A stretch of 64,000 bases of DNA from an uncultured Anaerolineales bacterium (GTDB lineage: Bacteria > Chloroflexota > Anaerolineae > Anaerolineales > UBA4823). Below are positions 17,011 to 50,357 of the stretch, piece by piece (within the stretch, counting starts at the first letter, position 1; the number at the start of each line of letters is the position of its first letter). Both the position numbers and the translations under genes were made by a program. A model generated the notes under the pieces. It did not search any database. It was not told where the DNA came from and saw nothing but the letters and a program-made list of their open reading frames with translations. Location of the stretch: NCBI GenBank assembly GCA_937928795.1, contig CALFWB010000073.1, positions 1,521 to 65,520 of the forward strand, given 5' to 3'.

Positions 17011-17062
17011 TGGGGCAAGTTTACCACCGATCTGGTTTTCCTTCCCCCTTTGAGCGTTTCCC

Positions 17063-17533: not shown

Positions 17534-17547
17534 CTGGAGGTCTTTTG

Positions 17548-20654: not shown

Positions 20655-22175
20655 ATGTCGAAATCCTCTTCCCCCGAAACTGCTCTCCCGAACCCCGCCG
20701 AGCCGCAACAAAAGGTCTTGGATGGGTCTCCTCTCCTGCGGCGTATTCTGTTGGCTGCTTTCTTGATTTTAGTGCTCTTTATCTTTTTACTCTCTCAGCG
20801 TCCAGACCGCTACTGGCTCAGCGCCATGGCGTTGCTCTTTGTCTTGCTTGCCGAGACGACCCTTAGCCTACGTGATTTGCGAGGAAAAGCGCATCAACAA
20901 AACCGACAGCTTTCCACGCTGAGCGCCATCAGCCAAGCCATGCAAAACGCCGCCCAACTCGATGAAATTCTGGCAGCCATCCAGCAACGCGTGCGCCAGC
21001 AGCTCGGCGTGGATAACTTTTATGTTGCCCTGTATGATGAACCCAACCGCCAAATTTGGTACCCGATGGCGGTCAAAGATGGACAAGTTGTTTATTGGGC
21101 GGTGCGTCCCTTGGCAAATCGGCTGACCGATCGCGTCATCCTAGAACGGCGCGCCATCCTCTTGCCAGCGCAAGCCCATCAGGAACTAAAGCGGACCGGT
21201 TTGCCCTTAGGCGAAGAGCCACTTTCGGCTTGGATGGGTGTCCCTTTGCAGGTTGCCGAACGCGTCCTGGGATGCTTGGCGGTTTTTTCTTATTCCCCTT
21301 TTACTTCCTTTTGCAGCGAAGACCTTGAGTTTCTGCAAACCCTAGCCGGCCAGGTTGCAGTTGCCGTGCAGAACTTCTTGCTGAGCGAACAAATCCGCCA
21401 AAGCGAACAGCGCATTCAGCACATGACTCTGCAAAGCCACCAACGCGAATTGCTGACCGAAACCCTGGTACACGATTTAAGGTCACCGATCGGAACCGTG
21501 CTGAGCGCCTTAGAAGTGATTGCGACAGCAGTGGAGAAAGAGGACATCTCACCTAAAGACACCCTTCGTCGCGCCGTTACAATTGCTCAGCAAGGCGCCG
21601 AGCGGTTGCTCAAGTTGACCGACCGCGTCTTAGAAATCACCCGTATGGAAGAGAGCGGCGTAAAGTTGGAAAAGCAGCCGATCAAGGTCTCCGAATGGAT
21701 ACTTTCCATGTTTCAAGAGTATCAGCCCCGTTGTGCAGCCGAACAATTGGCTTTTCATCTTCATCTTGAACCGAACCTGCCTACCCTTATCGCCGATGAA
21801 GAGAAGATGCGCCGCGTCCTGCACAACCTGTTGGACAATGCGATCAACTTCACGCCGCACGGTGGGGAGATTCGCTTGCTGGCTTCTGCCCCCCAGGCAG
21901 GTTGGTTGATCTTACAAGTGGAGGATAGCGGTCCAGGCATCCCGCCTGCAGACCGTGAGAAAGTCTTTGAGCGGTTTTATCAGGTTGCCGGGCAAGAAGC
22001 CAAACAGCGCGGCTCCGGTTTGGGATTAACCTTTTGTAGATTAGTGGTGCAAGCCCATGGGGGCGATATTTGGGTAGAGGATTCGCCACAAGGGGGTTGC
22101 CGCATGGTGATCAGGATGCCCGTTCAACCCCTTGAGGCTGCTTCTCTCCCGCCAGAATCCTCAGCCGCAGATTGA
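20655..22175 (+). CDS. sensor histidine kinase (TM-GAF-HisKA-HATPase)
   Basis: H-box HDLRSPIGTV, N-box LHNLLDNAINFT, G-boxes DSGPGIPP and GSGLGLTF. Confidence 0.85.
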   Translation: MSKSSSPETALPNPAEPQQKVLDGSPLLRRILLAAFLILVLFIFLLSQRPDRYWLSAMALLFVLLAETTLSLRDLRGKAHQQNRQLSTLSAISQAMQNAAQLDEILAAIQQRVRQQLGVDNFYVALYDEPNRQIWYPMAVKDGQVVYWAVRPLANRLTDRVILERRAILLPAQAHQELKRTGLPLGEEPLSAWMGVPLQVAERVLGCLAVFSYSPFTSFCSEDLEFLQTLAGQVAVAVQNFLLSEQIRQSEQRIQHMTLQSHQRELLTETLVHDLRSPIGTVLSALEVIATAVEKEDISPKDTLRRAVTIAQQGAERLLKLTDRVLEITRMEESGVKLEKQPIKVSEWILSMFQEYQPRCAAEQLAFHLHLEPNLPTLIADEEKMRRVLHNLLDNAINFTPHGGEIRLLASAPQAGWLILQVEDSGPGIPPADREKVFERFYQVAGQEAKQRGSGLGLTFCRLVVQAHGGDIWVEDSPQGGCRMVIRMPVQPLEAASLPPESSAAD

Positions 22176-25478: not shown

Positions 25479-26222
25479 CTAGAGCCACTCGATCGTGGAT
25501 TGCGTGGCTTTTCCCAAATCGCTATAGGCCCCGCGCAGTTCGGGGGGCAACAGGGCAGCCAAGATGTACATGGCTTCATCGGTCATCAAGCGTAATTGCT
25601 CCTTAGAAGGACGCTTCAGATGGGACTGATAGCGGAACGGCTCGCCGAATCGCACCTGAGCGCCGGGTTGTTTCCAACGCGGAGCGCCACGAAGGGCAGG
25701 GAAGCCAACCGTCCCCCAAATTGCGGTGGGGATCAACGGTACACCGCTGCGGGCTGCCAAATAGGCTATCCCCTCTTTTGCCTGAGAGAGGGCTGGCCGC
25801 CGCGTGCCTTCGGGCGCAACCAGGACAATCTCCCCGGCGTGCAACACTTCGAGGATTTGTTGCACTGCACGGCGGTCAACCTCTTCGCGGCGCACGGGAA
25901 TGACGCCCCACAGGCGCGGAATGATCCCAACAAGCGGATAATCATAAACTTCGATTTTGGCAAGCGGGACAATGTTGCGCGGGATGATATGCACAACCAC
26001 AATGGGGTCGACAAAAGCGATATGGTTGATGTAAAGGATTGCCGGGCCAGTCTTTGGGATGTTTTCAACTCCTTCTACTCGATCAAGTTTAACCAACAAG
26101 GTCATCCCAATAGTGCGCAAGAGGAAGCGTAAAAAGCGCCGTTGGGTTTCCCAGCGCGCATGGTTATAACGCTGTGAGGCTGTCTGAGGGAGTGAAACGT
26201 TCAGCGCATTTTGACTTTGCAT
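25479..26222 (-). CDS. plsC: 1-acyl-sn-glycerol-3-phosphate acyltransferase family protein
   Basis: NHIAFVDP (HX4D) and VAPEGTR motifs. Confidence 0.8.
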   Translation of the reverse strand: MQSQNALNVSLPQTASQRYNHARWETQRRFLRFLLRTIGMTLLVKLDRVEGVENIPKTGPAILYINHIAFVDPIVVVHIIPRNIVPLAKIEVYDYPLVGIIPRLWGVIPVRREEVDRRAVQQILEVLHAGEIVLVAPEGTRRPALSQAKEGIAYLAARSGVPLIPTAIWGTVGFPALRGAPRWKQPGAQVRFGEPFRYQSHLKRPSKEQLRLMTDEAMYILAALLPPELRGAYSDLGKATQSTIEWL

Positions 26223-26224
26223 GG

Positions 26225-26935
26225 TTAGAGTCCTTCCTCGGCTGGAAGCGAAAAATCGGCATAGACACCGCGATAATCGGGGGGTAAGAGCGCAGCAATT
26301 GCCAGCATCACTCGGTCGGCATTGTGCTGGCGAGCTTGGCGGCGGGCTTCACCTTTGGCAAGGATGGGCGGTAACTGAAGCGGTTTCCCAATGTTCATCT
26401 CCAGTTTAGGCCGCTTGAGGTGCAAGGCGCGTTGTAAGAAATCATCGGTAGAACCGATAACTCCCACCGGTACGACGGGGACCTTTGCCCTCTCAACCAA
26501 ATAGGCGATGCCGGGAAAGGCGCGCCGTAAGCCAGGGCGGTGTGTGCGTCCCCCTTCCGGAGCGATCAGCAGCGGCTTGCCGCTGGCGAGAATGCTAAGC
26601 GCTTGTTCCATCACTTGCCGGTCATATCGGCCGCGGTGAACCTGAATACCGTGATACAGACGGGCTAAAATGTTTTGTCCTTTGCGACGCCATACTTCCA
26701 CCGCTCCCATCGCCTCTAATTCGGTCGGCCAAAAGGCTACCACGAAAGGCGCCTCAAACAACGAGATATGGTTGATGGCAACCAAGTACGCTCCACTTTT
26801 TGGGACATTTTCTAAGCCGCGAATGCGAGCCGAACTGAGCAAGTGAAACAAACCGCGAAAGATCGGGCGCAAGACCTTGCGGGCAATGCGATTAAACAAG
26901 GGAACACGATACGGAGCGAGGGTTTCCACTTGCAT
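26225..26935 (-). CDS. lysophospholipid acyltransferase family protein (HX4E variant)
   Basis: NHISLFEAP and IAPEGGRT motifs. It ends 2 nt upstream of the next acyltransferase gene. Confidence 0.8.
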   Translation of the reverse strand: MQVETLAPYRVPLFNRIARKVLRPIFRGLFHLLSSARIRGLENVPKSGAYLVAINHISLFEAPFVVAFWPTELEAMGAVEVWRRKGQNILARLYHGIQVHRGRYDRQVMEQALSILASGKPLLIAPEGGRTHRPGLRRAFPGIAYLVERAKVPVVPVGVIGSTDDFLQRALHLKRPKLEMNIGKPLQLPPILAKGEARRQARQHNADRVMLAIAALLPPDYRGVYADFSLPAEEGL

Positions 26936-26938
26936 AGA

Positions 26939-27679
26939 TCAGGTGAATTGCTGCTGTCTTGAACGAACGATTTGCATCACCATCTCGAAAACTTGATCGC
27001 TGTCTTTGCCATCTGAATCGATGCAGACGGCATCGGCGGCCGGGCGCAAGGGAGCAATCGCGCGGCTCGAATCAATCCGATCGCGCTCGCGGATAGACTG
27101 AAGGACTTCCTCATAAGCGACCTTTTGACCACGCCCTTGCATCTCCAAAAGGCGCCGCCGAGCACGCTCTTCCAAAGAGGCGTCTAAATAGATCTTAACC
27201 CCAGCTTCTGGCAAAACAACCGTGCCGATGTCCCTTCCGACCATCACAACCCTGCCACGCAAACCGATGCGGCGCTGTTGGGAACTTAGAGCCTGCCGCA
27301 CGCCCGGATAAAGGGATACGATGGAGACATGGGCATCAACTTGCGGCTGGCGTATCTCCCAGGTCACATCCTGATCGCCAATCCAGACGTCATAAGCTCT
27401 GCCATCCGCTTTAGAAGGCTGGGTGACTTCAATGGGCACTTTCTCGGCAAGCGCAGTCAGTACCTCTTCGTCATTCATTGAGATTCCCTGTTGCAATGCC
27501 AGCCAGGTCAAAGCCCGATACATCACGCCGGTGTCGAAGTATAAATACCCTAGTGCCTGCGCTAGCCGTTGGCCAAGCGTGGACTTTCCCGAAGCGGCCG
27601 GCCCGTCAATGGTAATGATCTGCGAGGTATCTAAGTCTTTTGGTAGTTCAAGGTTGGTCAAGCGGTAACTCCTCTTCAA
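26939..27679 (-). CDS. cmk: cytidylate kinase
   Basis: ITIDGPAASGKST P-loop, FDTGVMYRA, GRDIGTVV. Confidence 0.9.
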   Translation of the reverse strand: MKRSYRLTNLELPKDLDTSQIITIDGPAASGKSTLGQRLAQALGYLYFDTGVMYRALTWLALQQGISMNDEEVLTALAEKVPIEVTQPSKADGRAYDVWIGDQDVTWEIRQPQVDAHVSIVSLYPGVRQALSSQQRRIGLRGRVVMVGRDIGTVVLPEAGVKIYLDASLEERARRRLLEMQGRGQKVAYEEVLQSIRERDRIDSSRAIAPLRPAADAVCIDSDGKDSDQVFEMVMQIVRSRQQQFT

Positions 27680-29483
27680 ACGGGATATCTAGGGGTGCTC
27701 CTCCTTGTCCAATGTTGAGCGATTGGCTGTCCGGGAAAAGGTCTGTCCGCGCCCAGAGGATAATCGGTTGGATTTCCCACGATCCTTGACGAAAGAGCAA
27801 CCAGTTAAGGGGAAAAGGTGGGATGCCCTGCCAATTGGGTTGATACCGCCAGTTGAAATCCTGCCCGCGATAGGTTGCTGCCAGGGCGGGATTTTCGATA
27901 GATGCGGGGGTGATCAGGAGGGCTGGCAGTTGCCCCCTTTGAGGAACCGACAATTGAACCAGGGCTTGATCTTCAGGTAAAACGGTCACCTGAGCTTGAT
28001 GGCGAAGTAGCCAGCGCAGGGCAGACGAATCGACAGCGATGACGATATCCAAATGATCGGCTCGACCACTCTTCCACCGCGCCAGATCTTGGACGGTTTT
28101 CAAGAGCAGGTCAGCATCGCCAATCTGAGGATAGGGCTTCCATAACTCTTGCCGAAAGACCTGACTCCACGGGTGCGAAAAAGACACACCCCAAACTGCT
28201 GAAACCGTAGAGAGGATAAAAGCGATCAAAACGCCGAGGATTAATCCTTGCCAAGCCAGTCGAGCAGACCAAGCCATCTCTGCCAACCACACGAAAAGGG
28301 CAATAACGGCCAAGCTGGAAAACAGAGAAGCAAAACGTAGCCAATCGGTAATCCCGTAGGCTACCAAAGAGCTATAGGCAGCAAGTTGTAACCAAAAAAG
28401 GGCGAGGAAAACGCAAGTAACTCCAGCTAAAAGGAAGTTCGCCCAAACCGGTTGCTCTAAGCTTTCAACCCAGCGGGCGATCTCCTGAGCCGCCAAGATC
28501 CATAAGGGTAAGATCACCCAAATCAAGTTCGTCAATTGGCGTGCGGGGTAGAGGATAGCCAACAAAAAGGCGAGACCAAACCAGAGAGCGAGGAAGCCTT
28601 GCCAGCGCTGTTCGGAGGCAAGGGCATTTTGCCAGCGGGCGATCAAGCTACGCACCATGCAAATACCGCCAAAGAGGAGCACCACGGCTTGATAGACCCC
28701 CAGAGATAGCCCTAGGTGCAGGATTGAAACAGAAGCAGGTCCTGTCCAACCCTTCAGGTAGCCCAGCAAGGGCACAAGCGTTGCTCCTAGCCCGCGCGGG
28801 TATAAGAAAAAGAGCGTGCTGCCGAAAAGAAGCGTCAGCAGCGTTGCGCCTCCAGCCGTTCTGAGAGCTTCCCTGGGCGGCAGCATTTCTTCCCACAGAG
28901 CTGCTGAGAAGGTGGGGGCAGAGGATAGGCTTTTCTCCAGCCAGGTGAATGCCCCAGCCGCCAGAAGCAGCAGCAGCCCGCCGTACCAAAAGGGCGCCCC
29001 ACTCAACAGCCCGAAACCAAGAGCAAGACCCACCAAGCTCCAACGCGCTTGGCTGGCAAAAAGGCAAATTCCGCCGAGAGCAGCCACAGCCGGCATGACC
29101 GAACCCATCTGGCGCGATTGCGCCACGAAAGCGGGGTCGAGCGCCAAGGCAAAAGCTAGGATTAGGGTCAAAGGTGTGCCTAGACGGCGACGGAGGGAGA
29201 TGACCGCAAGGATCAACAACGTCCCGCTGGTAGCTGCCAAGAAGCGAGCTAAAAAATTGCTGCTGCCAAATAGGAAGAAAAGCCCAGCGGAGACCAACAC
29301 TTCCAAAGGGTAAGCTTGGATGGTGGTCGCTTTGCCCTGCGTAATTTGCAAGGCTTGCAAAGCAAGTTCAGCTTCGCCATCTGTTAGGGGCGTGCTTCCC
29401 AGTGCGCTGAAACGGATCAAGGCGCCGATGACGAAAGCAGACCAAACGAGAGCAGTTTGTAAGGAAAAGGATGTTTGCTTCAT
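27648..29483 (-). CDS. polytopic membrane protein, possible GT-C-fold glycosyltransferase-like
   Basis: About 14 TM helices plus a C-terminal soluble domain of roughly 170 aa. There is an acidic first-loop segment (PLTDGEAELA). I took the ATG at 29483 rather than the TTG at 29504. It overlaps the cmk start by 32 nt. Confidence 0.55.
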   Translation of the reverse strand: MKQTSFSLQTALVWSAFVIGALIRFSALGSTPLTDGEAELALQALQITQGKATTIQAYPLEVLVSAGLFFLFGSSNFLARFLAATSGTLLILAVISLRRRLGTPLTLILAFALALDPAFVAQSRQMGSVMPAVAALGGICLFASQARWSLVGLALGFGLLSGAPFWYGGLLLLLAAGAFTWLEKSLSSAPTFSAALWEEMLPPREALRTAGGATLLTLLFGSTLFFLYPRGLGATLVPLLGYLKGWTGPASVSILHLGLSLGVYQAVVLLFGGICMVRSLIARWQNALASEQRWQGFLALWFGLAFLLAILYPARQLTNLIWVILPLWILAAQEIARWVESLEQPVWANFLLAGVTCVFLALFWLQLAAYSSLVAYGITDWLRFASLFSSLAVIALFVWLAEMAWSARLAWQGLILGVLIAFILSTVSAVWGVSFSHPWSQVFRQELWKPYPQIGDADLLLKTVQDLARWKSGRADHLDIVIAVDSSALRWLLRHQAQVTVLPEDQALVQLSVPQRGQLPALLITPASIENPALAATYRGQDFNWRYQPNWQGIPPFPLNWLLFRQGSWEIQPIILWARTDLFPDSQSLNIGQGGAPLDIPFEEELPLDQP

Positions 29484-29520
29484 TTGTACATGAATTATAC
29501 CCAATCAGCCAGCAACCCTT

Positions 29521-32169
29521 TCAGGGGCTCTGATAGATGGTGACTTGCCCAGATTGATAAAGCGGTATAAAAGCGCGCTGGAATTTCACCTCATACAATC
29601 CGCCAGGGCAGTTGCCGCTGCCAGGGCGATAGGTGTTGCGTTCCAAATCGCCAACAAAGATATAACGGATTTGATATTGCTCCACAATTTGCTGTGCCTC
29701 TTCGAGGTTACGGGAACAATACAGTCGTTCGAGATCGGCTTGACGGCTGCCCATCTCGCGCGCCCCACCGCGCCACTGACTTTCATGTCCAGTCCAGCCT
29801 AAAACGATCGGCTGACCAGAGAGCGTTCCCACGCGGGCGTATTGGGTATAGCTCCCGCCGCTAGGACTGACCGCTTCGGCGACAACCCCCAACGGCGCTT
29901 GGCTTAGCCAGGCGATGGCTCGCATCTCGTCCGGATTTTGCTGCCATAAGTAGGCGGTGCTGTCGAGAGTGTAGCCTTGCGGAGGACGGAAGTTGTTGGT
30001 TTTGCTCAACGTAGCTAAGATGGTATAAACCATCCCACTTAGGATCATCAGGACAGATAGACCCAAACTGATCCTTGCCCAACCGTTGAATGACTGGCTG
30101 GCAGGATCGTTCTCTTGGGCGATGCGTCGCTTGGCTGGCCGGCGTGCAGATGGAGCAGGGCGGGGGGACACAGGGGCTAATTCTTCCATCTCGCTTCCTC
30201 TGTCCGATGGGTTGCTGAACCAAGCCACTGCATAGGCAGCCGCAATGCCCCATAACAACCAAGCTTGATAGAAAAACTTGAACACCGTGTTCATGCGCCA
30301 ACCGAACTGGTCGCGCAGGTAGAAAAATTCGGGAAACAACACCAGCAAGGTGCCACCAATGATTAGGAGGGCAACAAAGCCCCTCACCCCTGGCCCCTCT
30401 CCCGCAGGGAGAGGGGAGTCAACTTCCCCTCTCCCTCTGGGAGAGGGGAAAGGGGTGAGGGCATCCTCCCCCTGCGCTTTGGGAGAGGGGAAAGGGGTGA
30501 GGGCCATCAACAAAGCCAACCCGCCACTCAAAAGGATTCCCAGTGTCAACCAACCACCCGCGTAAAAGAGGCGCCGGTAAATAGCCACCGGCAACCAATC
30601 GCTGACCGTTGTTGCTCCGATTGAACCCATGAACAAACCACCTAGAGCAGGTAAAGCGCTGATGATAAGCCCCATGGCAAGAGAAATCGCCCAGAGGGCA
30701 GTGAGCAAGCCTACCGTCCAGCCAATCGCCTGCCTAAGCTGGGGTTGAAACTTATGGTAATGCCATCCTAGCCAAGCAAGGATCGGTACAAATAAAGGGG
30801 CAAACATCACCCACAGGTGCGCCCCGCGCGTAGGATAGACGAGGTTGGGCAAGAAACCGCCGGCCTGAGAGGAGAAGCCCAAGTAAAAGGGCAGGTAAAA
30901 GACGCCCCCCAAAATGCCTGTCCAAATCCCAAAGCGCAAGAAGTCTGTGAGGGTGCCGGCTTTCCCTAAGGCATAAGCGGCGGCACATAAAGCGACATAA
31001 ATCGGAAAATCCCACGTATTGAGAAACGCCAGTCCGCCCAAGATCAGCGCTGCAATCAGGCTTTCACTCAAGGGAATAGCGAGCGGGTAACGCAGGACGA
31101 AACGGCCGCTACCCAGAACGACCTGATTAGTCGCTGCAGGCTCTGGACGGCTCTGCCAAGAGCGCCAAAGGTTGAGCGCCAGCCCGATCGCCAAGAGGGC
31201 AAAGGGCATAGCCAGTACGTGCGGGTGCAAATCGGCAAGGACATAGGAAAAAGCCGGAAATTCATCGATAATCTCACGCGGCGCACCGCTGACATCATAA
31301 TCCTGCACCACCCGCGAAGCCCGCCACCACCAATACCACCGCTTGGGTAATCCATCCAAGGGCAGTTGCGGTGGATCGCTCAGATCGGCCAAATCCAGCC
31401 ACTTCCAGAAACCCGAAACCCACACGCCGTTGCGTTGTTGCCAAAACAAGCCGGCTGCATGGAGAACTTCCAGCAGCCCGCCTAAATTGCCCATCAACAG
31501 CACCAGCAAAGGCGCTAATAAGGGTTTCCACAGAAAGCGTTTGGCAAATTCAAGGCTCAACAGATCGCTCAATAAGCCATAGGCGCCCAGCGCACTCAGG
31601 GCAAAAATCAAAGAGATACCCAAATTAAACGCCACCGCTCCGGCAGTGCCACAAAGCTTCGCCAGCATGGCAACCAGAACATAGCCAAAATAGTAATAAG
31701 AGATTGCATACCCAGAGAGCCACGGGTCGTGAGGAGGGAAGCTCTCTGAGCGTAAGATGGCATTGATAAAAGCCAATTCCATCGGCTTTTCGGTGCCTAG
31801 CGCCTCCGGGTTGGCGGCGCGCGTCACCGCCAGAGCAGCAAGGGCAAGGAAGAACAAACCTTCCATGACCCCCACCTGCGTGCGGTTTTCCTTCCACCAA
31901 CGGAGAAATTCTGCCTTGCCGGTTTTGAAGAAGAGGAAAAGACTAACCCCACCAACAACGGCTAGGGCAAAGAGAATCCCTTCAGTACGGTTTTCGGTGA
32001 GGTGTAAAGAGGTTAGCAGCCAGAAGGCATAACCCCACAAAAGCAACCCCAAAGTACGGCTGAAGGCATAGCCACGCTGCGGCAGGTGACGAAAGAGCCA
32101 AAAGGCGATCGGAAAAGTCAGCCAACCGACTAGCGTAATCGCCGCATACCAAAGGAGAAAATCTCTCAT
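29521..32169 (-). CDS. DUF2298 (Chlor_Arch_YYY) family membrane protein
   Basis: HLPQRGYAFSRTLGLLLWGY N-terminus and a YYY motif (SGYAISYYYFGYV). More than 15 TM helices and a C-terminal soluble domain. The family assignment is from memory of TIGR03662/DUF2298. Confidence 0.75.
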   Translation of the reverse strand: MRDFLLWYAAITLVGWLTFPIAFWLFRHLPQRGYAFSRTLGLLLWGYAFWLLTSLHLTENRTEGILFALAVVGGVSLFLFFKTGKAEFLRWWKENRTQVGVMEGLFFLALAALAVTRAANPEALGTEKPMELAFINAILRSESFPPHDPWLSGYAISYYYFGYVLVAMLAKLCGTAGAVAFNLGISLIFALSALGAYGLLSDLLSLEFAKRFLWKPLLAPLLVLLMGNLGGLLEVLHAAGLFWQQRNGVWVSGFWKWLDLADLSDPPQLPLDGLPKRWYWWWRASRVVQDYDVSGAPREIIDEFPAFSYVLADLHPHVLAMPFALLAIGLALNLWRSWQSRPEPAATNQVVLGSGRFVLRYPLAIPLSESLIAALILGGLAFLNTWDFPIYVALCAAAYALGKAGTLTDFLRFGIWTGILGGVFYLPFYLGFSSQAGGFLPNLVYPTRGAHLWVMFAPLFVPILAWLGWHYHKFQPQLRQAIGWTVGLLTALWAISLAMGLIISALPALGGLFMGSIGATTVSDWLPVAIYRRLFYAGGWLTLGILLSGGLALLMALTPFPSPKAQGEDALTPFPSPRGRGEVDSPLPAGEGPGVRGFVALLIIGGTLLVLFPEFFYLRDQFGWRMNTVFKFFYQAWLLWGIAAAYAVAWFSNPSDRGSEMEELAPVSPRPAPSARRPAKRRIAQENDPASQSFNGWARISLGLSVLMILSGMVYTILATLSKTNNFRPPQGYTLDSTAYLWQQNPDEMRAIAWLSQAPLGVVAEAVSPSGGSYTQYARVGTLSGQPIVLGWTGHESQWRGGAREMGSRQADLERLYCSRNLEEAQQIVEQYQIRYIFVGDLERNTYRPGSGNCPGGLYEVKFQRAFIPLYQSGQVTIYQSP
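30381..30503. repeat. three GGGAGAGGGG/GGGGTGAGGG repeat units inserted in frame in the DUF2298 gene
   Basis: CCCTCACCCCTGGCCCCTCTCCCGCAGGGAGAGGGG, followed by two copies of CCCCTCTCCC..GGGAGAGGGGAAAGGGGTGAGGG. It encodes LTPFPSPKAQGEDALTPFPSPRGRGEVDSPLPAGEGPGVRG. Confidence 0.75.
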
Positions 32170-35100
32170 GGCCGGTTCACCTCGTAAATCACCGTTTGCC
32201 CGTCACGATACACTGCCCGCCACAACAAGCCATTGGCAGCCTCGAATTTCTCTAGGCCGGGTCCAGCATATTTGCCGCGCTCTTGTTGACCAAGGATGAT
32301 ATAGCGCACCTGATATTTTTCCAAGAAATTCATGGCTTCTTGGAGGTCGAGCGTGCGGTAGAAGGCTTCGATCTCCTCGATGCGTTGCGTCACCCAGGTT
32401 GCCGGCAAGATGGTGCGTTGCTGTTGCTGGTGCCATTCCCACCCGACGACGCCGGGCAAGCCAGTGTAGATGCTGAAACGCGAACCCCAGCGGTAGAGAT
32501 CGCGCAGGTTCGCTTCGACAATGACCGGTGAGCCTTTGACGTTATCCTGCATCCACAAGATGGCGCGGTAGTCTTGGCTGAGGTCCATTTCCCCCCAACT
32601 ATCGGTGTATTTGGAAGATGCCATGAAAGCCATACCATCGAGGTTGTGCGGCGCTGCCTCGCTCATCCGATCCTTCACTTTAGCGGTTGTAGCGGTGATC
32701 GGATAGAGCGCAGCCGAGAGGACGAGGAACAGAAAAACGCTCTTCCAGAGGTTTCCCCACGTGCTTCGCCAAATCAGCAAACTAGGTAACAGCCAGCCCA
32801 ACGCCGCGCCAGCCACTACAGCAAACATCGTCCACACTTGCAGATAAAACTTGAAGACCGTGTTCATCCGCCCAATGTCGCCAGCGACGACCACCACTTC
32901 TACCATTAGGGTGACCATCAAACCCGTGCCAACGAGGAAGAGGGCAAAGCGTTTCTCATCAGGTTGATCGTGGCGCAAGATGAGCACTCCAGCCCAAGCT
33001 GCCAGAGGGAGGACGATCCAGGCGATGGCAACTTGCAGCCAAGCCATCAAGCCGATGATCACAGCAACGAGAACGAAGCCGGCATACCCGATCCACGGCA
33101 GGTAAGGTTTGAGTTTCTGCAGGGCAGAGAGCGGCGTCTTCGCCATCCAGTCAATCGTTTCCCAAATCAGCCAAGAAACGATCACGAACAGGAATAAGCC
33201 CCAATGAACGAGGTAAGAAAAGCTGGGCGTGTGCGTGCCTTTCCACAGGTTGATGTCGGAATATCCCCAACCTAGCCAGCGCGTGAAGGGATAGAACCAC
33301 AAGTTTGAGGTCAACACCAGAAGCCCCACGCCAAAGAGGGCACTTGCCGAGGCTCGCAGCCACGCCTTGCCTAGCTGAGCGATTGGCTCTCCCTCTGCGT
33401 CTTCGGCACGGAGGGCTGGGCGCAACAGGCGGTAAGCCACGATGGCGCTGACCAACGCAAGATAAGGATAATAATCGGAATAGTTGGTCGGGCGCAGAAC
33501 GCCGATCAGCAGGCCGCCGATCGCTAAGCGCGCCACTGTCTGAAGCTTGGGCTTTATTTGGGGCAGGAGCAGAAACGACAAGGCAAAGGCTAGGGTCAAC
33601 AAAGCCAGCGGCAAGGCAAATAAATGAGCGTGTGGGTCACCGTATAACACGGTAAAAAAGGGAAATTCGGTGATCGGTTCAACATCGTTGGGAGCCGGGA
33701 TAGCCCGACTGGGAATCCAATACCAATCCCCCAAACTGTAAGGCAGATTCATCCCTTTCAAGACCTCGATAAATCCTTGCACCGTCCAAACGGCGCGGAT
33801 TAGCAGGTTGGCGCCCTCAATGCTGCCGCCCGGCGCAGCTAATTTTTGATAGCCGTTCAGGATCATGCGTAAGGTGCCCAGATTGCCTAAAACCGCCATG
33901 CCTAACGCAGCCGCTAGCCCACTGACCCAGTTAAGGGTGAAGTTGGGTTTGTTGGTGACCGCAGCGGATGTGCGCCAACGCGCCACCAGATTCCATCCTA
34001 ACGAGAATGCCCCTAAAGCGATCAGACTGAAGGTGGTCGGCAGGATGAGATTATAGGCAATAGCTGGGACAATCCCCAACCACTTGACCGGCACCCCCAT
34101 CAGCACGAAGCCGTAGTAGTAATAATTCAAATAGCCGCCAGCATACCAGGGATCATAAGGCGGGAAGGAGGTGCTTTTGAGAATCGCATTGAAATAGGCG
34201 AAATCCATGGGCTTCTCGCCGCCCTTCCAGGGGTGCCATAGGTCTGGGTTGCCCAAGCGGATGAAGAGGTCGAAAATGAAAAAGGCGAGAAAAAGCATTT
34301 CCACCCACAGGAATTGCTTTTTGCGTTGGCGAATTTCTTGGCTAAGCCCTTGCCGATCGAGCAGGGCAACCGCAAACGAGACCAACAACAGCACTCCAAA
34401 GACGAGACTGATTGTTAGTCGTTCAAAGGGCACCCGCACGGAACCGAGCAGCCATACGAAATAGGAAAGCAGCAGCAAACCAAATATGCGCGATAGAGGA
34501 TAGCCGCGGTCATCCAAGCCGGCAAAGACCTGACGCGTTAGCGGATAAACGCCCCAACCCAGAAGGCTGAGAGTCAAATACCAGACCAGGATGGCAATAA
34601 GATGATCGCGATTCTGGAGGGCGTTGCGGTTGAACAGTTCTGACCAAGTGCCGCCGCTCTGCTGTTCGCGCAGGCGGTCAGGCGGTAAGAGCAACAAACC
34701 GGGAAATTGGGAGGCTTTGCGCGGGGTTAGATGAATAACTTTCGAGAGATCGACAGCGGTAAGCAGCCGCCGAACGCTCAAGGAGTCATAATCGACGCTT
34801 TTACGGAAGATCAGCACCTTAGGGTGATCGTACACGGTGAAGGCTTCCTCGGCAAATTGGTCATTGATGCGCCACTTTCCTAAGCTAGGGAACGACTCAA
34901 AAACTTGCACCAGCTCGAAGCCCAATTTCCCTTGAAATTGACCCGGTTGAGCCACGTTGTAACACCAGATCACATCCTTTTCTTCGGGGCAGCCGATCAG
35001 CAGGCGATAATAGGTCGTTGAAAGCGGATAGCGCTCGGGCACGCGCGGCACGGTGCCCCACTGGCGATTGGAGGAGATAAAGATGTAGTCTGCTTGGTCA

Positions 35101-37310
35101 AGGATGGAGAGAAAACGGCTGAGCTTTTCGGCGTTATCGTCCCAGTACATCTCGAAGACCAAATCGCGCTGGTAAATCCCGCCATAGCCATCGTAGCCAT
35201 CCATGCGCAAGGGTAAGCCGTCATCCCAGGAGCTTTCGTTGGCTGGGGCAGCCCCGGCAAGCGTAAGCGCTGCGGCGGTCTCTCCCTCAAGGAAAAGAGT
35301 AAGCTGATATTGTTGGTCTTTTGCCACCGCAATGGGTTGTTCGAATGCGAGCGTTACTTCCTCGCCGCGGCGGTCGTTGAAAGAGAGGAAATCGCGGCGC
35401 ACGAAGGCGCTCCAAACCATTTCGGGCTGGGCGGCTTTGGCAAGGCTGAGGGTTAGGGTTTTTTCGGCGCGCAAGTCGGTCACATCTCGCACATGGGCGA
35501 GGGTAATTTGCTCAAGGTTGCCGCTGACGGCGGCGTTGAAGAAGGTGCGATAAGGTGTCTCAGCCGTGATGAGATGGTCATAAGGAAAGGGCAAAGGCTG
35601 GCGATAGAGACTGCCATCTTCCTTTCGGATGCTGAGGTGGATCGGGGCCGGCACATTTTGATAAATCCAGCGCGAAGCCTCAACTCGCGTCACCGGACGG
35701 GTGTAGATGCGGGTGAACGCCCATGCCCATAGGAAAGTCAAACTCAGCACCAGCAAGCCAATGAGGAGCGCAACTGCCCGCCGCAAGGTCTGGCTTTGCC
35801 AAAAGGAGCGCAGATCCTTTACTTGCTGCCATTGCCACAGCGCCACGATCGCCCAAGCCGCCATGATCGCCAAGCCGGGATAAGAGGGCAACTGATAGCG
35901 CATGGTTGGGTTAGGCTGTAAGGATTGCCAAGTGAAATAAAAAGCCGTCCAAGCCCATAAGACCCCATGGAGAGCGACCTCTCCCTTGAGCAACCGCCAA
36001 CCCATCCATAAGAAGCCTGCCCAAGCCATTAGCCCTAGAGGCAAACCCAAGCCCCAGACGGTTAGGTTTTGCCAGGAGAACCAGCGCGGGCGGCGCGCCC
36101 ACTGGAGCGCCGGCGGAAAATCGACATCGCCGGCGCTTTGATTGCGTTGTTCACGGATGTTCGCCACCCAAGCTGGATTCGGTTTTACGCCGAAGAAGCC
36201 CGGGCCAGCAAAGGCATAAGGTTGAAAGAGGCGGAAAGTCAGGATGCTCACTGCACCAGCCGCAACCAAACAGAGAACAGCTTGATTCCAGAACGTAGTT
36301 GGCATTTGCTCCTGCCAGTCCGTTTGGTGGGCTTTCCAATAGCGCAGCGCAAAAGCCAGCGGGAGCAGAAAAGCTAAGGGATAAGCGGTCAATTTGGAAG
36401 CCATGGCACAACCAAAACTGACCCCAAACGCCAAGCTCGTCAGGAAAAGGGGAGAGCGCAGCTCTTGAATCCACCATCTCCCCTTGCTCTGTAGGAGAGA
36501 TGCCGAGAGTGAGGACTGCTCCTCTCTCGCCGTGGGAGAGGGGTCGGGGCGCCGCCCTGAGCTTGCCGAAGGGATGAGGGATGTCTCCTCTCGCTCCATG
36601 GGAGAGGGGTCGGGGCGCCGCCCTGAGCTTGCCGAAGGGGTGAGGGATGTCTCCTCTCGCTCCATGGGAGAGGGGTCGGGGCGCCGCCCTGAGCTTGCCG
36701 AAGGGGTGAGGGACAATTCCTCTCCCCGCGGGAGAGGGGTCAGGGGTGAGGGCTGACCAACCAACCTTACCGCCAAATACACTCCCAGAAAGATAAAGAA
36801 ATTAAGAAAGGTGTCTTCTTTGAAAAAGTGCGAAAGTTGAATCGGCAGAACAGCCAAGCCATAAAACGCAGCCGCCAATAAACTCACTCCCCTGCCATAC
36901 AAGCGCAGAGCGGTTGCAGCTACCAAATATAAGGTCAGTAGATCGAAAATCGCCGATAACGGGCGGCCAACGGTGAGCATCTCGCGAAACCCCGAATGTC
37001 CGTAGATGCTCTCGACCAAATAGCGCGCTAAGAACATGGGTAGCGTGCCATAGACGAAGAAGCCATGCCCGCGATTATGGGGGTTCAGCGATGAATTGGC
37101 TGTGTCAAAGTATTCGCTCAGGCTCTTAACCGGGGCAATATCCGAGCCGACCCAAACCAAAAAACGTTCATCGGGGTGCAGGTATTGCTCTTCACCCCAG
37201 TTGATTCCCACGAAGCGGAAATAAGTGGCTATCCCCAAGATCACCATCAGACCAAGCCAATAAAGCCATGCAGGAAGCGATTGGCGTCCGTGACGAGAAG
37301 TTTGCATCAT
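32166..37310 (-). CDS. 1714-aa fusion membrane protein: N-terminal GT-C-like module plus C-terminal DUF2298 (YYY) module
   Basis: The N-terminus has HPDERFL in the first loop, then TM helices and a large soluble domain. From about residue 870, DDRGYPLSRIFGLLLLSYFVW and GGYLNYYYYGFVL parallel the stand-alone DUF2298 gene. The stop overlaps the downstream start (ATGA). Confidence 0.75.
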   Translation of the reverse strand: MMQTSRHGRQSLPAWLYWLGLMVILGIATYFRFVGINWGEEQYLHPDERFLVWVGSDIAPVKSLSEYFDTANSSLNPHNRGHGFFVYGTLPMFLARYLVESIYGHSGFREMLTVGRPLSAIFDLLTLYLVAATALRLYGRGVSLLAAAFYGLAVLPIQLSHFFKEDTFLNFFIFLGVYLAVRLVGQPSPLTPLPRGEELSLTPSASSGRRPDPSPMEREETSLTPSASSGRRPDPSPMEREETSLIPSASSGRRPDPSPTAREEQSSLSASLLQSKGRWWIQELRSPLFLTSLAFGVSFGCAMASKLTAYPLAFLLPLAFALRYWKAHQTDWQEQMPTTFWNQAVLCLVAAGAVSILTFRLFQPYAFAGPGFFGVKPNPAWVANIREQRNQSAGDVDFPPALQWARRPRWFSWQNLTVWGLGLPLGLMAWAGFLWMGWRLLKGEVALHGVLWAWTAFYFTWQSLQPNPTMRYQLPSYPGLAIMAAWAIVALWQWQQVKDLRSFWQSQTLRRAVALLIGLLVLSLTFLWAWAFTRIYTRPVTRVEASRWIYQNVPAPIHLSIRKEDGSLYRQPLPFPYDHLITAETPYRTFFNAAVSGNLEQITLAHVRDVTDLRAEKTLTLSLAKAAQPEMVWSAFVRRDFLSFNDRRGEEVTLAFEQPIAVAKDQQYQLTLFLEGETAAALTLAGAAPANESSWDDGLPLRMDGYDGYGGIYQRDLVFEMYWDDNAEKLSRFLSILDQADYIFISSNRQWGTVPRVPERYPLSTTYYRLLIGCPEEKDVIWCYNVAQPGQFQGKLGFELVQVFESFPSLGKWRINDQFAEEAFTVYDHPKVLIFRKSVDYDSLSVRRLLTAVDLSKVIHLTPRKASQFPGLLLLPPDRLREQQSGGTWSELFNRNALQNRDHLIAILVWYLTLSLLGWGVYPLTRQVFAGLDDRGYPLSRIFGLLLLSYFVWLLGSVRVPFERLTISLVFGVLLLVSFAVALLDRQGLSQEIRQRKKQFLWVEMLFLAFFIFDLFIRLGNPDLWHPWKGGEKPMDFAYFNAILKSTSFPPYDPWYAGGYLNYYYYGFVLMGVPVKWLGIVPAIAYNLILPTTFSLIALGAFSLGWNLVARWRTSAAVTNKPNFTLNWVSGLAAALGMAVLGNLGTLRMILNGYQKLAAPGGSIEGANLLIRAVWTVQGFIEVLKGMNLPYSLGDWYWIPSRAIPAPNDVEPITEFPFFTVLYGDPHAHLFALPLALLTLAFALSFLLLPQIKPKLQTVARLAIGGLLIGVLRPTNYSDYYPYLALVSAIVAYRLLRPALRAEDAEGEPIAQLGKAWLRASASALFGVGLLVLTSNLWFYPFTRWLGWGYSDINLWKGTHTPSFSYLVHWGLFLFVIVSWLIWETIDWMAKTPLSALQKLKPYLPWIGYAGFVLVAVIIGLMAWLQVAIAWIVLPLAAWAGVLILRHDQPDEKRFALFLVGTGLMVTLMVEVVVVAGDIGRMNTVFKFYLQVWTMFAVVAGAALGWLLPSLLIWRSTWGNLWKSVFLFLVLSAALYPITATTAKVKDRMSEAAPHNLDGMAFMASSKYTDSWGEMDLSQDYRAILWMQDNVKGSPVIVEANLRDLYRWGSRFSIYTGLPGVVGWEWHQQQQRTILPATWVTQRIEEIEAFYRTLDLQEAMNFLEKYQVRYIILGQQERGKYAGPGLEKFEAANGLLWRAVYRDGQTVIYEVNRP
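36518..36752. repeat. tandem array: 3 x 66 bp plus a partial fourth unit, in frame within a CDS
   Basis: Units at 36518-36583, 36584-36649 and 36650-36715 are near-identical. The partial unit is 36716-36752. It encodes 22-aa repeats MEREETSLTPSASSGRRPDPSP. Confidence 0.9.
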
Positions 37311-37356
37311 AGCCCTATGATAACACTCCCTAGCAGGGTGAGATGAGCCATTGCGG

Positions 37357-39810
37357 TTAAGGACTTAACCCTTCGGGTATCAGCCCAGGGTTGGGCGGGA
37401 CGAAATACAGGTAGAAATTCTTGCCCTCCCACGGGGATCGCTGTTCCTGCCAACTACCCAATGGATAAACTCGTTGCAGGGCTTCAAGGCCGGCCGTGTC
37501 TTCGGGTTTGACGATAAACAGCTTTGGACCTTCAAAAGCTAAAGTTTCTTCGAGTTGATCTGGCCAAATGGCGTAGTCCTTGAGCGGAAAGCCGGCATTC
37601 ATTCCCACCAAGCGCGTGTCCACCCAATGTGGATAAGCAACCACCCAAGCCGTGTGCGGCGTGCCAATGGTAGTAGCAAATTCACGGATGATCTTGCCCA
37701 TCTGGCTAGTATTCCAAGCAGATTGGGCGTATTGTGTGTAATATTGACGGAAAACCAGATCGTAATCTTGCCACATGCCTAAACCGAGCAGAGAGAAAGC
37801 AAGCAGCCATCCTATGGAGCGCCGCCAACCACCTTGGAAGGCATTTTCAAAGGGGCGAATTAGCGCCTCTAAGCCCAAGGCAGCTAGGATAAAGACCGGA
37901 ACGATCGCCCCCGACGTGCGGTTCAGGATCGGATTCTCATCGGGGAAGGCAAGGGATAAGACAGAAGGCAACAATAATAACGGAATAGAAATCAGTAAGA
38001 AGAGGTCAAGCCACTCCAAGCGACGTACATAGCGCACCAGCACCAGCAGGCTGCCAATAAAGAACAACGCTGCCGAAACCACACTCAAGGCTGGCCGTCC
38101 GGGAATTGAGACAACCCACACATTGCCATTGTTCCAGAAAAACATGATCAGCGCCTTCCAAAGGTTGCTGAAGAAAATTTGGATAGCCGGCTGGTCAAGT
38201 GGCTTTTCGAGGTCGGTTAGGCGGGTGAGGCCGCGGTAGAAAAACATCTCGGGGTTTTGCACGGCGTAGCGCAGGAGAGGTAAAAAGACAATAAAGGAGA
38301 TCATCACGATCATCATCAGCCCAATGATCAGAGCGCGGCGGTGCTGCGGCTCGGCACGATGGAGAAGGGCTAAGCCAACGGCAGCCAATACGACCAGAGG
38401 AACGAGCCGAAAGGGGGAATAGCCGTGCAACCCCAGCCCTAGGAAAAGGCCGCAGAGAATGAAATCTCTCGCATTCGGGCGGCGCAGGGCACGGATGAGA
38501 TAATAAAGCGTCGGAGCAACAAAGAGCGGATAGAGACTGAAGCGCAATCCCACCCGTGTAATGACATTCAACCAATAGGAAACGCCCGCCAAGACCATGG
38601 CAAAAAGCCCAACGCGGCGGTTGGCAATTTCTTGCCCTAAAAGGTACAGATAGGCCAAGGCCAGCAGCCCGGCAATCGTAGTGCCGAGCTTCAAGCTCAT
38701 AAAGCTCAAGCCTGTGCCAAAGAGCTTTGCCACGGCAGCAGTGAGGAACATTTGAAATGCCTCGCGCCCGGTATTGCGGGGATAGAAGATTTGCCACTTG
38801 CCCTCCAGCACATCGGCAACGTCGAGCAGTTTCTCAGCGTGGTCGCTGACCATCTCAGGCGGCACCTCTGCTAAGCGGTAGAAACGAAAGAAGAGCAGGA
38901 CAAGCGCAGCCAAAAAGAGCAGCACTGTCCAGCGGGTGATACGCACTTGCCATTCCTGCGCCCGTAGCCACTGGGTGCTCCTCGTGATCCATTCAAAGGA
39001 AAGCCAGCGCAGAGGATAGAAGGCGCGCACCATAAACCCGATGGAGAGCGCCCATAGGATCAGGTTGAGCGGATTAAACGCCCCGCCACCAAAGGTAAGG
39101 AAAGCCAAAACAGCGCTGACCCAGGCGGCCGCAAAAGCGGGCAGGTGGAGGCGAAATTCCATCTCCTCCCTTGTCCCCTGAGCGAGGGGCTTGGGGCGTT
39201 GTACTGAGCTTGCCGAAGTACGTTGTACTGAGCTTTCCGAAGTACTTGTCGAAAGGTGAGAGTCTTTCTCATCCTCCTTTGGGAGAGGGGATGTGGGCAC
39301 TTCGAGAGCAAACTTTAGGCTGGCAACGATCAACACCAGCGCCGCCATTCCATAAAAGAGAGCTCCAAGAGTGGCATCCGGTCGAGGAGGTTCGAGCGAG
39401 ATTTGGGCAAACAAAGCCAAAGTCAAGACCGAGAGGCTACTGAGCATCCCCAATCGCTCTATTCGGGAGAGCCGCCGAGATGGCGTTTGGACTTGCGCAG
39501 CAGAGACCCCAGCAGAGAACGGCTCAGTAAGATGGTTTCCCGACTGCTCGGATGGGAGCGCAACAACCGTCTCGCCCAGATTTGACAAAGACCGGCGAGC
39601 TTCTTCGGCGGTCGTTTGGGCTGGCGTCTCTGCTTCTGCCGCGGCTTCAAAGGACCGGGCTGCTTGGATGGTCGGTTTTTGCCTCAATTCCCTGAAGTGA
39701 GCGGGCAAGTGCCGCCAGTCTTTCAACAGCGATTTGACGTAATCGAGAACGCTAGGCTCTTCCAAAGGACGATGATCCCAAACTAAGTGATGGATGCCCC
39801 AATGATACAT
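37357..39810 (-). CDS. GT-C-fold (family 39/ArnT-PMT-like) membrane glycosyltransferase-like protein
   Basis: Multi-TM core with an acidic first-loop segment (SDHAEKLLDVADV) and a C-terminal soluble domain. I trimmed the start to the ATG at 39810 because the ORF-track N-terminus (MSCPTKQCCQQ) is a translation of the MITE-like repeat. Confidence 0.7.
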   Translation of the reverse strand: MYHWGIHHLVWDHRPLEEPSVLDYVKSLLKDWRHLPAHFRELRQKPTIQAARSFEAAAEAETPAQTTAEEARRSLSNLGETVVALPSEQSGNHLTEPFSAGVSAAQVQTPSRRLSRIERLGMLSSLSVLTLALFAQISLEPPRPDATLGALFYGMAALVLIVASLKFALEVPTSPLPKEDEKDSHLSTSTSESSVQRTSASSVQRPKPLAQGTREEMEFRLHLPAFAAAWVSAVLAFLTFGGGAFNPLNLILWALSIGFMVRAFYPLRWLSFEWITRSTQWLRAQEWQVRITRWTVLLFLAALVLLFFRFYRLAEVPPEMVSDHAEKLLDVADVLEGKWQIFYPRNTGREAFQMFLTAAVAKLFGTGLSFMSLKLGTTIAGLLALAYLYLLGQEIANRRVGLFAMVLAGVSYWLNVITRVGLRFSLYPLFVAPTLYYLIRALRRPNARDFILCGLFLGLGLHGYSPFRLVPLVVLAAVGLALLHRAEPQHRRALIIGLMMIVMISFIVFLPLLRYAVQNPEMFFYRGLTRLTDLEKPLDQPAIQIFFSNLWKALIMFFWNNGNVWVVSIPGRPALSVVSAALFFIGSLLVLVRYVRRLEWLDLFLLISIPLLLLPSVLSLAFPDENPILNRTSGAIVPVFILAALGLEALIRPFENAFQGGWRRSIGWLLAFSLLGLGMWQDYDLVFRQYYTQYAQSAWNTSQMGKIIREFATTIGTPHTAWVVAYPHWVDTRLVGMNAGFPLKDYAIWPDQLEETLAFEGPKLFIVKPEDTAGLEALQRVYPLGSWQEQRSPWEGKNFYLYFVPPNPGLIPEGLSP
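39172..39297. repeat. repeat-derived in-frame insert including a 2 x 24-bp tandem
   Basis: GTTGTACTGAGCTTGCCGAAGTAC (39198-39221) and GTTGTACTGAGCTTTCCGAAGTAC (39222-39245) are flanked by CCCCTGAGCGAGGGG and GGGAGAGGGG. It shares CTGAGCTTGCCGAAG with the 66-bp array. Confidence 0.75.
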
Positions 39811-39846
39811 CAAGCTGGAAGAGCAGACAAGACAGGATTTAGGCGA

Positions 39847-39924
39847 GTGTGCACTCAAAAGTTGTTGGCAACATTGCTTTGTAGGACAACTCATTGAGTT
39901 GTCCTACAACTTCTGCGTGGACAC
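39847..39924 (+). repeat. 78-bp MITE-like palindromic element, copy 3
   Basis: Lies in the divergent intergenic region between 39810 (-) and 39969 (+). The central base of the palindrome is T instead of A. Confidence 0.85.
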
Positions 39925-39968
39925 TTTAGGCGAACATGGTAAAATGCTCTCAACACGGGAGAGGCAGA

Positions 39969-44990: not shown

Positions 44991-45105
44991 ACTATAATCA
45001 TAGCATGGAAATATTCAAAAACGGGAACGAAGTTCAGCAAAAGGGGGAGTTTGCTTGGCAGCAGCCCTTCGCTCCCGCAAAACCCATAACGGAGAGGAGG
45101 ATGGT

Positions 45106-50335: not shown

Positions 50336-50357
50336 ACCGTTCACCTCAGCCCCTATT

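Follow-up and report, generated by a model that had tools for sequence, protein, structure and literature searches.

A block of eight genes on the minus strand of a 64,000-nucleotide (nt) stretch of contig CALFWB010000073.1, from an uncultured Anaerolineales bacterium (the whole stretch is called the window below), encodes five membrane modules with the C-type glycosyltransferase (GT-C) fold, together with a cytidylate kinase, two acyltransferases and a sensor histidine kinase. We consider it probable, at roughly two chances in three, that the block is an envelope-biogenesis unit whose core is a multi-enzyme GT-C glycosylation machine at the external face of the membrane. The same explanation holds that the eight genes would be co-transcribed as one unit, as suggested by their common strand, their short gaps and their kept order in relatives. 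The block most likely builds or decorates a sugar polymer of the cell envelope. A first-pass annotation of this DNA had proposed an uncharacterised envelope glycosylation or glycopolymer system, and that proposal has gained ground: there are five GT-C modules, the block is conserved, no match to a characterised family with a known substrate was found, and relatives carry additional glycan genes.

The genes of the block, read from the open reading frame (ORF) listing and all on the minus strand, are given here with their lengths in amino acids (aa), followed by the repeat at their upstream edge.

37357 to 39810, minus strand: gene A, 817 aa from ATG 39810 (longest ORF 37357 to 39894, 845 aa), a GT-C membrane protein of PMT_2/GT39-like type
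32166 to 37310, minus strand: gene B (whole), 1714 aa
34641 to 37310, minus strand: N-terminal half of gene B (residues ~1-890), a PMT_2/PMT-like GT-C module with a soluble domain
32166 to 34640, minus strand: C-terminal half of gene B (residues ~891-1714), a DUF2298 / Chlor_Arch_YYY module
29521 to 32169, minus strand: gene C, a stand-alone DUF2298 / Chlor_Arch_YYY protein, 882 aa
27648 to 29504, minus strand: gene D, an ArnT-like GT-C-fold protein, 618 aa from TTG or 611 aa from ATG (M8)
26939 to 27679, minus strand: cmk, a (d)CMP kinase, 246 aa; its first 32 nt are shared with the end of D
26225 to 26935, minus strand: AT1, a PlsC-like acyltransferase, 236 aa
25479 to 26222, minus strand: AT2, a PlsC-like acyltransferase, 247 aa
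22124 to 25462, minus strand: sensor histidine kinase, 1112 aa; begins 16 nt beyond AT2
39847 to 39927, no strand assigned: 81-nt dispersed palindromic repeat, intergenic between A and the divergent CitMHS transporter gene, in the block's leader or promoter region

From A to AT2 the ORF coordinates gave spacings of +46, -4, +16, -32, +3 and +2 nt, with the start of C overlapping the stop codon of B by 4 nt. This reproduces the seven minus-strand genes at 25479-39810, spaced by -32 to +46 nt, that had been described at first pass. The 817-aa form of A proposed there (start at 39810) is also better than the 845-aa longest ORF, since ATG 39894 falls in the loop of the hairpin formed by the 81-nt repeat; residues of A that are conserved among orthologues begin only at E46 of the 845-aa form. 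The repeat occurs in the window as four intergenic copies with 93-96% identity (8298-8378, 17063-17143, 39847-39927 and 52442-52520). It holds a perfect 31-nt palindrome, TTGTAGGACAACTCAATGAGTTGTCCTACAA, whose hairpin is predicted at -36.6 kcal/mol (z -5.9), and it has no Rfam match at the gathering threshold.

Conservation of the neighbourhood, which the first-pass annotation had named as a check, was assessed by tblastn with each window protein in a scan of one genome per species. The 80 closest loci were retained, all of Anaerolineae type, and the carriers include the cultured Anaerolinea thermolimosa and Ornatilinea apprima; synteny counts take in only loci with enough flank (individual loci are cited below by their L numbers). 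All the genes shared a strand and held to a common order, and the order A-B-C-D-cmk was kept in ~90% of some 60-70 species-level Anaerolineae loci. A lay upstream of B in 53 of 58 loci, the N-terminal half of B was in place in 57 of 65, the DUF2298 half of B stood beside C in 61 of 69, D followed C in 66 of 71, and cmk followed D in 61 of 66. Median gaps between successive genes were 20-36 nt and overlaps were frequent. The acyltransferases were the least conserved component: among 59 loci, 13 had no copy, 23 had one, 14 had two and nine had three. The kinase was downstream in 42 of 55 loci, often directly after cmk where acyltransferases were missing (L018, L024 and L050). Given this co-conservation and the 16 nt that separate it from AT2, the 1112-aa kinase is counted with the block, which is one of eight genes, not seven. 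An apparently truncated cmk in L084 was rejected, as the record has a masked run of N there.

As a control, the flanks of the block in the window (the CitMHS transporter, other kinases, and the TPR, M50 peptidase and baeRF genes) were followed in the same way and were adjacent only in one or two of the closest relatives. The block order is therefore strongly kept while its flanks are not, and D itself shares just 27-36% identity at most loci. An arrangement that recurs in ~90% of species-level relatives is far beyond chance; together, the kept order, the non-conserved flanks and the divergence of D indicate that the block is held by selection, not by recent common ancestry.

Genes surrounding the block in relatives point in the same direction. 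A glycosyltransferase family 4 (GT4) gene and a class-I methyltransferase gene lie immediately upstream of A in ~45 loci; in relatives these are preceded by an LPG_synthase_TM (flippase-like) gene and, before that, lepA. Some loci have further inserts. In L085 (3722-7317) a nucleotide-sugar module stands between GT4 and A, with genes for NTP_transferase, SIS isomerase and GHMP kinase alongside two methyltransferase genes, a combination that we take to resemble the synthesis of nucleotide-activated heptose, and in L084 (20132-22276) two extra GT4-type genes follow cmk, replacing the acyltransferases and the kinase. Every one of these variable inserts consists of genes for glycan biosynthesis, in support of a glycoconjugate as the product. 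From the locus of the window, and of its closest relatives (L001 and L004-L007), the upstream part has been lost, and in the window a divergent CitMHS/TrkA_C transporter occupies the site.

A DUF2298 gene resembling C (42-45% identical) was also found on its own, without A, B, D or cmk, in Brevefilum (L052, 3664-12382) and in L077, L078 and L083. Oriented divergently, the Brevefilum gene has as neighbours the genes for a LysM-bearing YkuD L,D-transpeptidase, a histidine kinase of ~700 aa and a LytR_cpsA_psr ligase. These surroundings are a wall-glycopolymer context.

All five membrane modules of the block are GT-C by Pfam, by profile-profile comparison or by predicted fold. Comparison with hhalign, using profiles built from orthologue alignments of 53-84 related loci, sorted them into two groups, one comprising A, the N-terminal half of B and, more weakly, D, and the other comprising the C-terminal half of B and C. 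The two members of the second group matched each other with a probability of 100%. In the first group, the A family matched the N-terminal half of B with a probability of 92% (E 6e-7) and D, more weakly, with 78%. The architecture is that of two pairs of a PMT_2-like and a DUF2298 module, one split between A and C and one fused in B, plus the ArnT-like D.

Within the first group, A matches Pfam PMT_2 (E 2.5e-11, 44.5 bits versus a cutoff of 26.1). The N-terminal half of B has no Pfam match in the window protein at E<=0.01. Most of its orthologues have precomputed matches to PMT_2 (PF13231) and/or PMT (PF02366), some being annotated 'glycosyltransferase family 39', and its GT-C status is drawn from these matches and from its hhalign relation to the A family. 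Its soluble domain is conserved and has a conserved cysteine pair, C774 and C783. The marks of a PMT (GT39) enzyme are a PMT/PMT_2 membrane domain and, in its loop 1, a DE motif, and A and the N-terminal half of B carry both. A Pfam scan at E<=0.01 found no MIR (beta-trefoil) domain in A or B, which rules them out as true PMT enzymes.

Membership of the second group in the DUF2298 / Chlor_Arch_YYY family is secure by curated cutoff. Residues 904-1711 of B score 513.4 bits against TIGR03662 (cutoff 300.25) and match Pfam DUF2298 (PF10060) at E 4.9e-109; C scores 457.4 bits against the same model and matches Pfam DUF2298 at E 1.2e-102. The two YYY motifs described at first pass (ISYYYFGY and LNYYYYGF) are both present, in C as AISYYYFGY at residues 155-163, with Y158 and Y159 conserved, and in B as YLNYYYYGF at residues 1061-1069 (LNYYYYGF at 1062-1069), with Y1064-Y1066 conserved. 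Further conserved motifs of the family are EKPM[ED], DPW, EFP, D-L-H-P-H and a C-terminal GW.GHE.QWRG. A single search scored more than 6,900 DUF2298 relatives. Homologues of C came from Anaerolineales and other Chloroflexota, and every relative retrieved belonged to Chloroflexota; the NCBIfam name of TIGR03662, 'chlor_Arch_YYY', implies a family shared with Archaea.

Sequence searches of the PDB with C and with A returned no match, so structure prediction was needed. The AlphaFold2 model of C had a predicted local distance difference test score (pLDDT) of 84 and a predicted template modelling score (pTM) of 0.89. Its best full-length Foldseek match was DPY19 (E 5.7e-6, probability 1.0), in a loose alignment with template modelling scores (TM) of 0.33/0.41, a root-mean-square deviation (rmsd) of ~14 Å and 11% identity, and ArnT was matched with a probability of 0.95. 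The C-terminal soluble domain of the model resembles the C-terminal globular domain of AglB-S2 (Foldseek probability 1.0, TMt 0.52). Consistent with this, a sequence profile of the DUF2298 C-terminal domain ranked the AglB-S2 domain 3vu0 first in the PDB (E 0.004), with a second AglB domain also listed. The WWDYG motif is missing: neither WWD nor WW.[YWF]G occurs anywhere in A-D, and this absence rules out oligosaccharyltransferase (OST) membership for DUF2298.

Three of the GT-C genes, A, B and C, contain in-frame insertions of GC-rich hairpin-forming units (…CCCCTCTCCC…GGGAGAGGGG…GGGGTGAGGG), at 30381-30503 in C, 36474-36752 in B and 39187-39291 in A; the same units also occur at 8747-8788 and 17244-17314. 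Part of the insert in B is a 66-nt tandem array of 3.5 copies. Within the genes the units encode low-complexity loops (SLTPSASSGRRPDPSPMEREET x3; …SPLPAGEGPGVRG), and the insert in C coincides with the sole long low-confidence stretch of the C model (pLDDT<50 at residues 562-588).

Protein D was described at first pass as a 611-aa polytopic protein; the size holds for the ATG start, and the description can be extended, since D itself has a GT-C fold by predicted structure. It has no Pfam match. The AlphaFold2 model (pLDDT 85.9, pTM 0.86) was closest in Foldseek to ArnT (5f15; E 1.1e-8, TM 0.53-0.61), followed by ALG9/ALG12, PglB, STT3, Pmt4 and EmbB (probability 1.0), with AftD also among the matches. 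At the sequence level the nearest named family is that of archaeal Agl23 (TIGR03663), which D matches over its N-terminal ~115 residues only, at 33.9 bits (E 1.7e-8) versus a cutoff of 126.25, so that the cutoff is not reached; A and B gave no TIGR03663 match. Going by the NCBIfam name and description of the family, TIGR03663 genes accompany TIGR03662 (DUF2298) genes. The D family is large, with 7,872 representatives at E<=1e-3 and at least 1,878 at E<=1e-30 in a 50%-identity library, has no Pfam or NCBIfam model and appears in its source records only as 'hypothetical protein'. Among the matches listed in a search of the representative library with the D profile were only strong full-length relatives, and none formed a bridge between D and Agl23.

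In each of the five modules, acidic residues that follow the first membrane helix of the GT-C core were at least 93% conserved among 53-84 orthologues. In A these are D351 and E354, with two residues between them (53 orthologues); in the N-terminal half of B, an adjacent pair, D47 and E48, within a conserved H45-P-D47-E48 motif; in the C-terminal half of B, E1033 and D1037; in C, E127 and E131; and in D, the single acid E44, conserved together with R31, R87 and R131 in positions consistent with a GT-C active site. Placement of the acids in the first external loop was deduced from the models and the sequence. GT-C enzymes carry their catalytic base at this site, and in DPY19 it is a first-loop Glu (PMC10154233). 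These loop acids are candidate catalytic residues.

A working scheme can be assembled from these parts. Each GT-C module would take a sugar from a polyprenyl-phosphate donor at the outer face of the cytoplasmic membrane and pass it to an envelope acceptor, as GT-C families in general lead one to expect; the donor is assumed here, since no glycosyltransferase family 2 (GT2) polyprenyl-phosphate-sugar synthase was identified in the block. PMT_2-like and DUF2298 modules may act as physical pairs, like Pmt1-Pmt2 or EmbA-EmbB, an idea suggested by their fusion in B. Because the window has no GT4, methyltransferase or flippase-like gene, the full pathway is reconstructed from relatives: GT4 would prime a lipid-linked intermediate in the cytoplasm, the intermediate would cross the membrane, and the GT-C modules would then elongate or transfer it outside the membrane. 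The resulting glycan, methylated in part, would be borne by an envelope polymer, a lipid or a protein. cmk and the PlsC-like acyltransferases would supply CDP/CTP and phosphatidic acid, as co-regulated membrane-lipid housekeeping, and through the dCache sensor kinase expression or activity is probably tied to the state of the envelope. As for the acceptor, we give a lipoglycan, a protein and a wall or sheath polysaccharide about equal, low weight.

A bolder version of this scheme, which we regard as rather unlikely in its entirety, holds that DUF2298 is an unrecognised GT-C branch with an OST-like C-terminal domain, obligately paired with a PMT_2-like partner. Together with D the two pairs would assemble the major, hitherto undescribed Anaerolineae envelope glycoconjugate (a methylated lipoglycan, a glycan of the wall or sheath, or the outcome of protein glycosylation of a new type), its synthesis wired to a cmk/PlsC supply of phospholipid and CTP and to the dCache kinase.

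Known GT-C systems offer partial parallels. With the ArnT/PMT_2 enzymes (GT83/GT39-type) the block shares the PMT_2 matches of A and of the N-terminal half of B in orthologues, the fold of D and the acidic motif in the first loop after transmembrane helix 1. It differs in having no MIR domain, in a D that falls outside Pfam and NCBIfam and in the fusion of one copy to DUF2298; moreover, lipid A is excluded as the acceptor here, because the hosts are Chloroflexota and no lipopolysaccharide (LPS) genes were seen in the block. With DPY19 (7zlh/7zlg; PMC10154233) the DUF2298 model shares the GT-C fold and a Glu that is conserved in the first external loop. However, DPY19 is a eukaryotic enzyme of the endoplasmic reticulum, and DUF2298 has the extra OST-like C-terminal domain as well as the EKPM[ED]...DPW...YYY and DLHPH motifs. 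As in AglB, PglB and STT3, the GT-C membrane domain precedes an external domain at the C-terminus, and this C-terminal domain is AglB-like by fold and, weakly, by profile; in contrast to those enzymes, DUF2298 lacks WWDYG, its membrane domain has no STT3 profile match, and there is no sign of an N-glycosylation sequon acceptor.

Mycobacteria provide another comparison, in the enzymes for phosphatidylinositol mannosides (PIM), lipomannan (LM), lipoarabinomannan (LAM) and arabinogalactan (EmbA/B/C, AftD, PimE and Mpt). There too several large GT-C proteins are encoded together, and EmbB and AftD are among the structural matches of D. The mycobacterial GT-C enzymes extend an envelope glycan on the outside of the membrane, in a pathway that also has cytoplasmic GT4 priming and acyltransferases. 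Unlike that system, the block has proteins with no sequence-level membership in its families, its acyltransferases are PlsC-type, and DUF2298 is absent from mycobacteria's set. By analogy, the block may work like other GT-C envelope systems (ArnT, PMT, Emb/Aft/Mpt and OST), yet it lies outside every characterised family.

Several observations weigh against the envelope-glycosylation reading. No homologue of the GT4 or methyltransferase genes was found anywhere in the 64-kb window and the flippase-like gene is also absent; the GT2 synthase missing from the block counts in the same sense. Scans for promoters and terminators gave counts equal to the shuffled expectation and so speak neither for nor against an operon, and a crude positive-inside count on the AlphaFold2 helices gave no clear topology. 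Between DUF2298 and the PMT_2-like families hhalign found no profile link (probability <6%), so the argument for a common GT-C ancestry of the two groups comes from the fold, and the predicted structural likeness of DUF2298 to DPY19 is loose. Literature searches on DUF2298 and TIGR03662/3 found no functional study in the searchable literature, and those on Chloroflexi GT-C proteins, cmk-plsC operons and Anaerolinea glycolipids likewise found nothing functional. Finally, D may not be catalytic and could have a flippase-like role, since it has one loop acid (E44) and few conserved positions (29) and since its nearest named family is Agl23, which is reported (PMC11182771) to be a lipid-linked-oligosaccharide translocator (flippase) and no transferase, as shown in proteoliposomes.

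Among the other explanations, the one that survives best is a composite operon in which glycosylation is the work of A-D alone, with cmk and the PlsC-like genes, and perhaps also the kinase, as unrelated housekeeping passengers on the transcript. Bacterial operons often mix in housekeeping genes, and cmk-plsC adjacency presumably occurs in other Gram-positive-type phyla without GT-C genes. The encoded proteins fit such a view: cmk is a bona fide equivalog, scoring 232.1 bits against TIGR00017 over its full length (cutoff 135.55; Pfam Cytidylate_kin E 1.5e-70), and the variably present acyltransferases are PlsC-like, AT1 matching PF01553 at E 8e-19 and AT2 at E 7.7e-24, with Thermotoga maritima PlsC (5kym) as the best PDB match of both (E 1.3e-9 and 4.2e-12). 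Their scores against TIGR00530 (PlsC) are 73 and 42 bits, for a cutoff of 103. AT2 has the canonical HX4D motif (NHIAFVD), and AT1 has an HX4E variant (NHISLFE), found in 27 of 46 orthologues. Against a composite operon, cmk comes right after D, often overlapping it, across deep divergence (the 61 of 66 loci above) while the true flanks are not kept, and the kinase stands directly behind cmk even where acyltransferases have been lost. We rate this explanation as a serious contender that falls somewhat short of even odds.

The kinase itself has a polytopic N-terminus followed by dCache_1, HAMP, GAF, PAS, HisKA and HATPase domains (Pfam). Its 3' end overlaps that of a convergent 506-aa GAF histidine kinase gene (20655-22175, plus strand) by 52 nt, at 22124-22175.

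The same genes can be turned the other way, into a lipoglycan pathway like the PIM/LM/LAM pathway of actinobacteria. Here the PlsC-like proteins and cmk would feed the making of a CDP-diacylglycerol-derived anchor and its acylation, GT4 would glycosylate the anchor, LPG_synthase_TM would flip it and the GT-C modules would extend it, a gene logic that we take to parallel PimA/PatA plus GT-C mannosyl- and arabinosyltransferases. The tight linkage of cmk to D is consistent with this, as are the GT4 and flippase-like genes upstream in most relatives and the presence of one to three PlsC-like paralogues in 46 of 59 loci, beyond housekeeping need, with the HX4E variant in AT1. On the other side, 13 of 59 loci keep A-D, cmk and the kinase yet have no acyltransferase, both acyltransferases in the window resemble ordinary PlsC and not the PatA type, cmk passes a housekeeping equivalog model, the block showed neither a CDP-alcohol phosphatidyltransferase nor CdsA, and the searchable literature has no report of a lipoglycan from Anaerolineae. 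We consider a lipoglycan pathway unlikely. The lipid-anchored product hinted at in the first-pass annotation accordingly stays a possibility, though a weakly supported one, because cmk and the PlsC-like genes could be co-transcribed phospholipid or nucleotide housekeeping, and we do not take these genes as proof of a lipid anchor.

Protein glycosylation, in which the DUF2298 proteins would be distant OST/DPY19/PMT-type relatives that modify secreted or surface proteins, for instance those of an S-layer or sheath, with PMT_2-like co-enzymes, seems to us no better a bet than the lipoglycan. Its appeal lies in the best structural neighbours of DUF2298, DPY19 and, for the C-terminal domain by both fold and profile, AglB, which take peptides, and in the match of A and of the N-terminal half of B to PMT_2/PMT, the families of protein O-mannosyltransferases. 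Archaea heavily glycosylate their surface proteins, and by its NCBIfam name DUF2298 is shared with them. This has to be balanced against the absence of WWDYG/WWD motifs and of a MIR domain, the low TM-scores to DPY19, the match to ArnT, which has a lipid acceptor, and the lack of any co-conserved gene for an acceptor protein in the block. That D, and possibly A too, is an Agl23-like translocator or scramblase of polyprenyl-phosphate-linked sugars feeding the DUF2298 enzymes is improbable: the sole named-family signal of D is to Agl23, a translocator in the report cited above, and the block in the window has no dedicated flippase gene, but that signal is far under the cutoff, the fold of D is closest to the transferase ArnT, E44, R31, R87 and R131 are conserved in a manner consistent with a GT-C active site despite the few conserved residues and single loop acid, and relatives have LPG_synthase_TM as a candidate flippase.

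Returning to the reading of the block as an envelope glycosylation unit, the analysis places both the DUF2298 and the D families in the GT-C fold and finds them travelling together across Anaerolineae as one selected unit. Candidate catalytic residues have been identified, and the cultured carriers make the block experimentally approachable. A machine of five GT-C modules, present throughout the class, is a concrete candidate for the maker of the main surface glycoconjugate in the poorly understood Chloroflexota envelope. If DUF2298 were to prove a protein- or lipid-directed transferase shared with Archaea, it would add a new enzyme class to the few GT-C families with known acceptors. As it stands, the block is one uncharacterised glycan cluster among many, and no new principle is shown.

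Other features of the window lie apart from the block. A selenocysteine tRNA gene at 17440-17534 on the plus strand was detected by Rfam (tRNA-Sec, 75.5 bits) and by ARAGORN (tRNA-SeC, anticodon tca); it lies just upstream of, or overlaps, the M50 peptidase ORF and adjoins a gene for an RF-1-domain (ArfB-like) protein at 16579-17070. Genes for a release-factor-like baeRF_family10 protein (45055-46206, plus strand) and a response regulator with a GAF domain (43848-44990, minus strand) adjoin each other, and a GAF-PAS histidine kinase is encoded at 41873-43801. Within 11572-15614 on the plus strand are an FGE-sulfatase-like gene (13104-14066) and a UbiA prenyltransferase gene (14098-15012), which are not syntenic with the GT-C block; the ORFs flanking them, 11572-13107 and 15009-15614, have no Pfam match. 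A PIG-L family deacetylase gene is located at 47659-48522. Finally, at 48901-52168 on the minus strand, genes for ThiF/rhodanese (MoeB-like), Prok-JAB and PALP (cysteine synthase-like) proteins stand in a row, an arrangement that suggests cysteine synthesis dependent on a sulfur-carrier protein.

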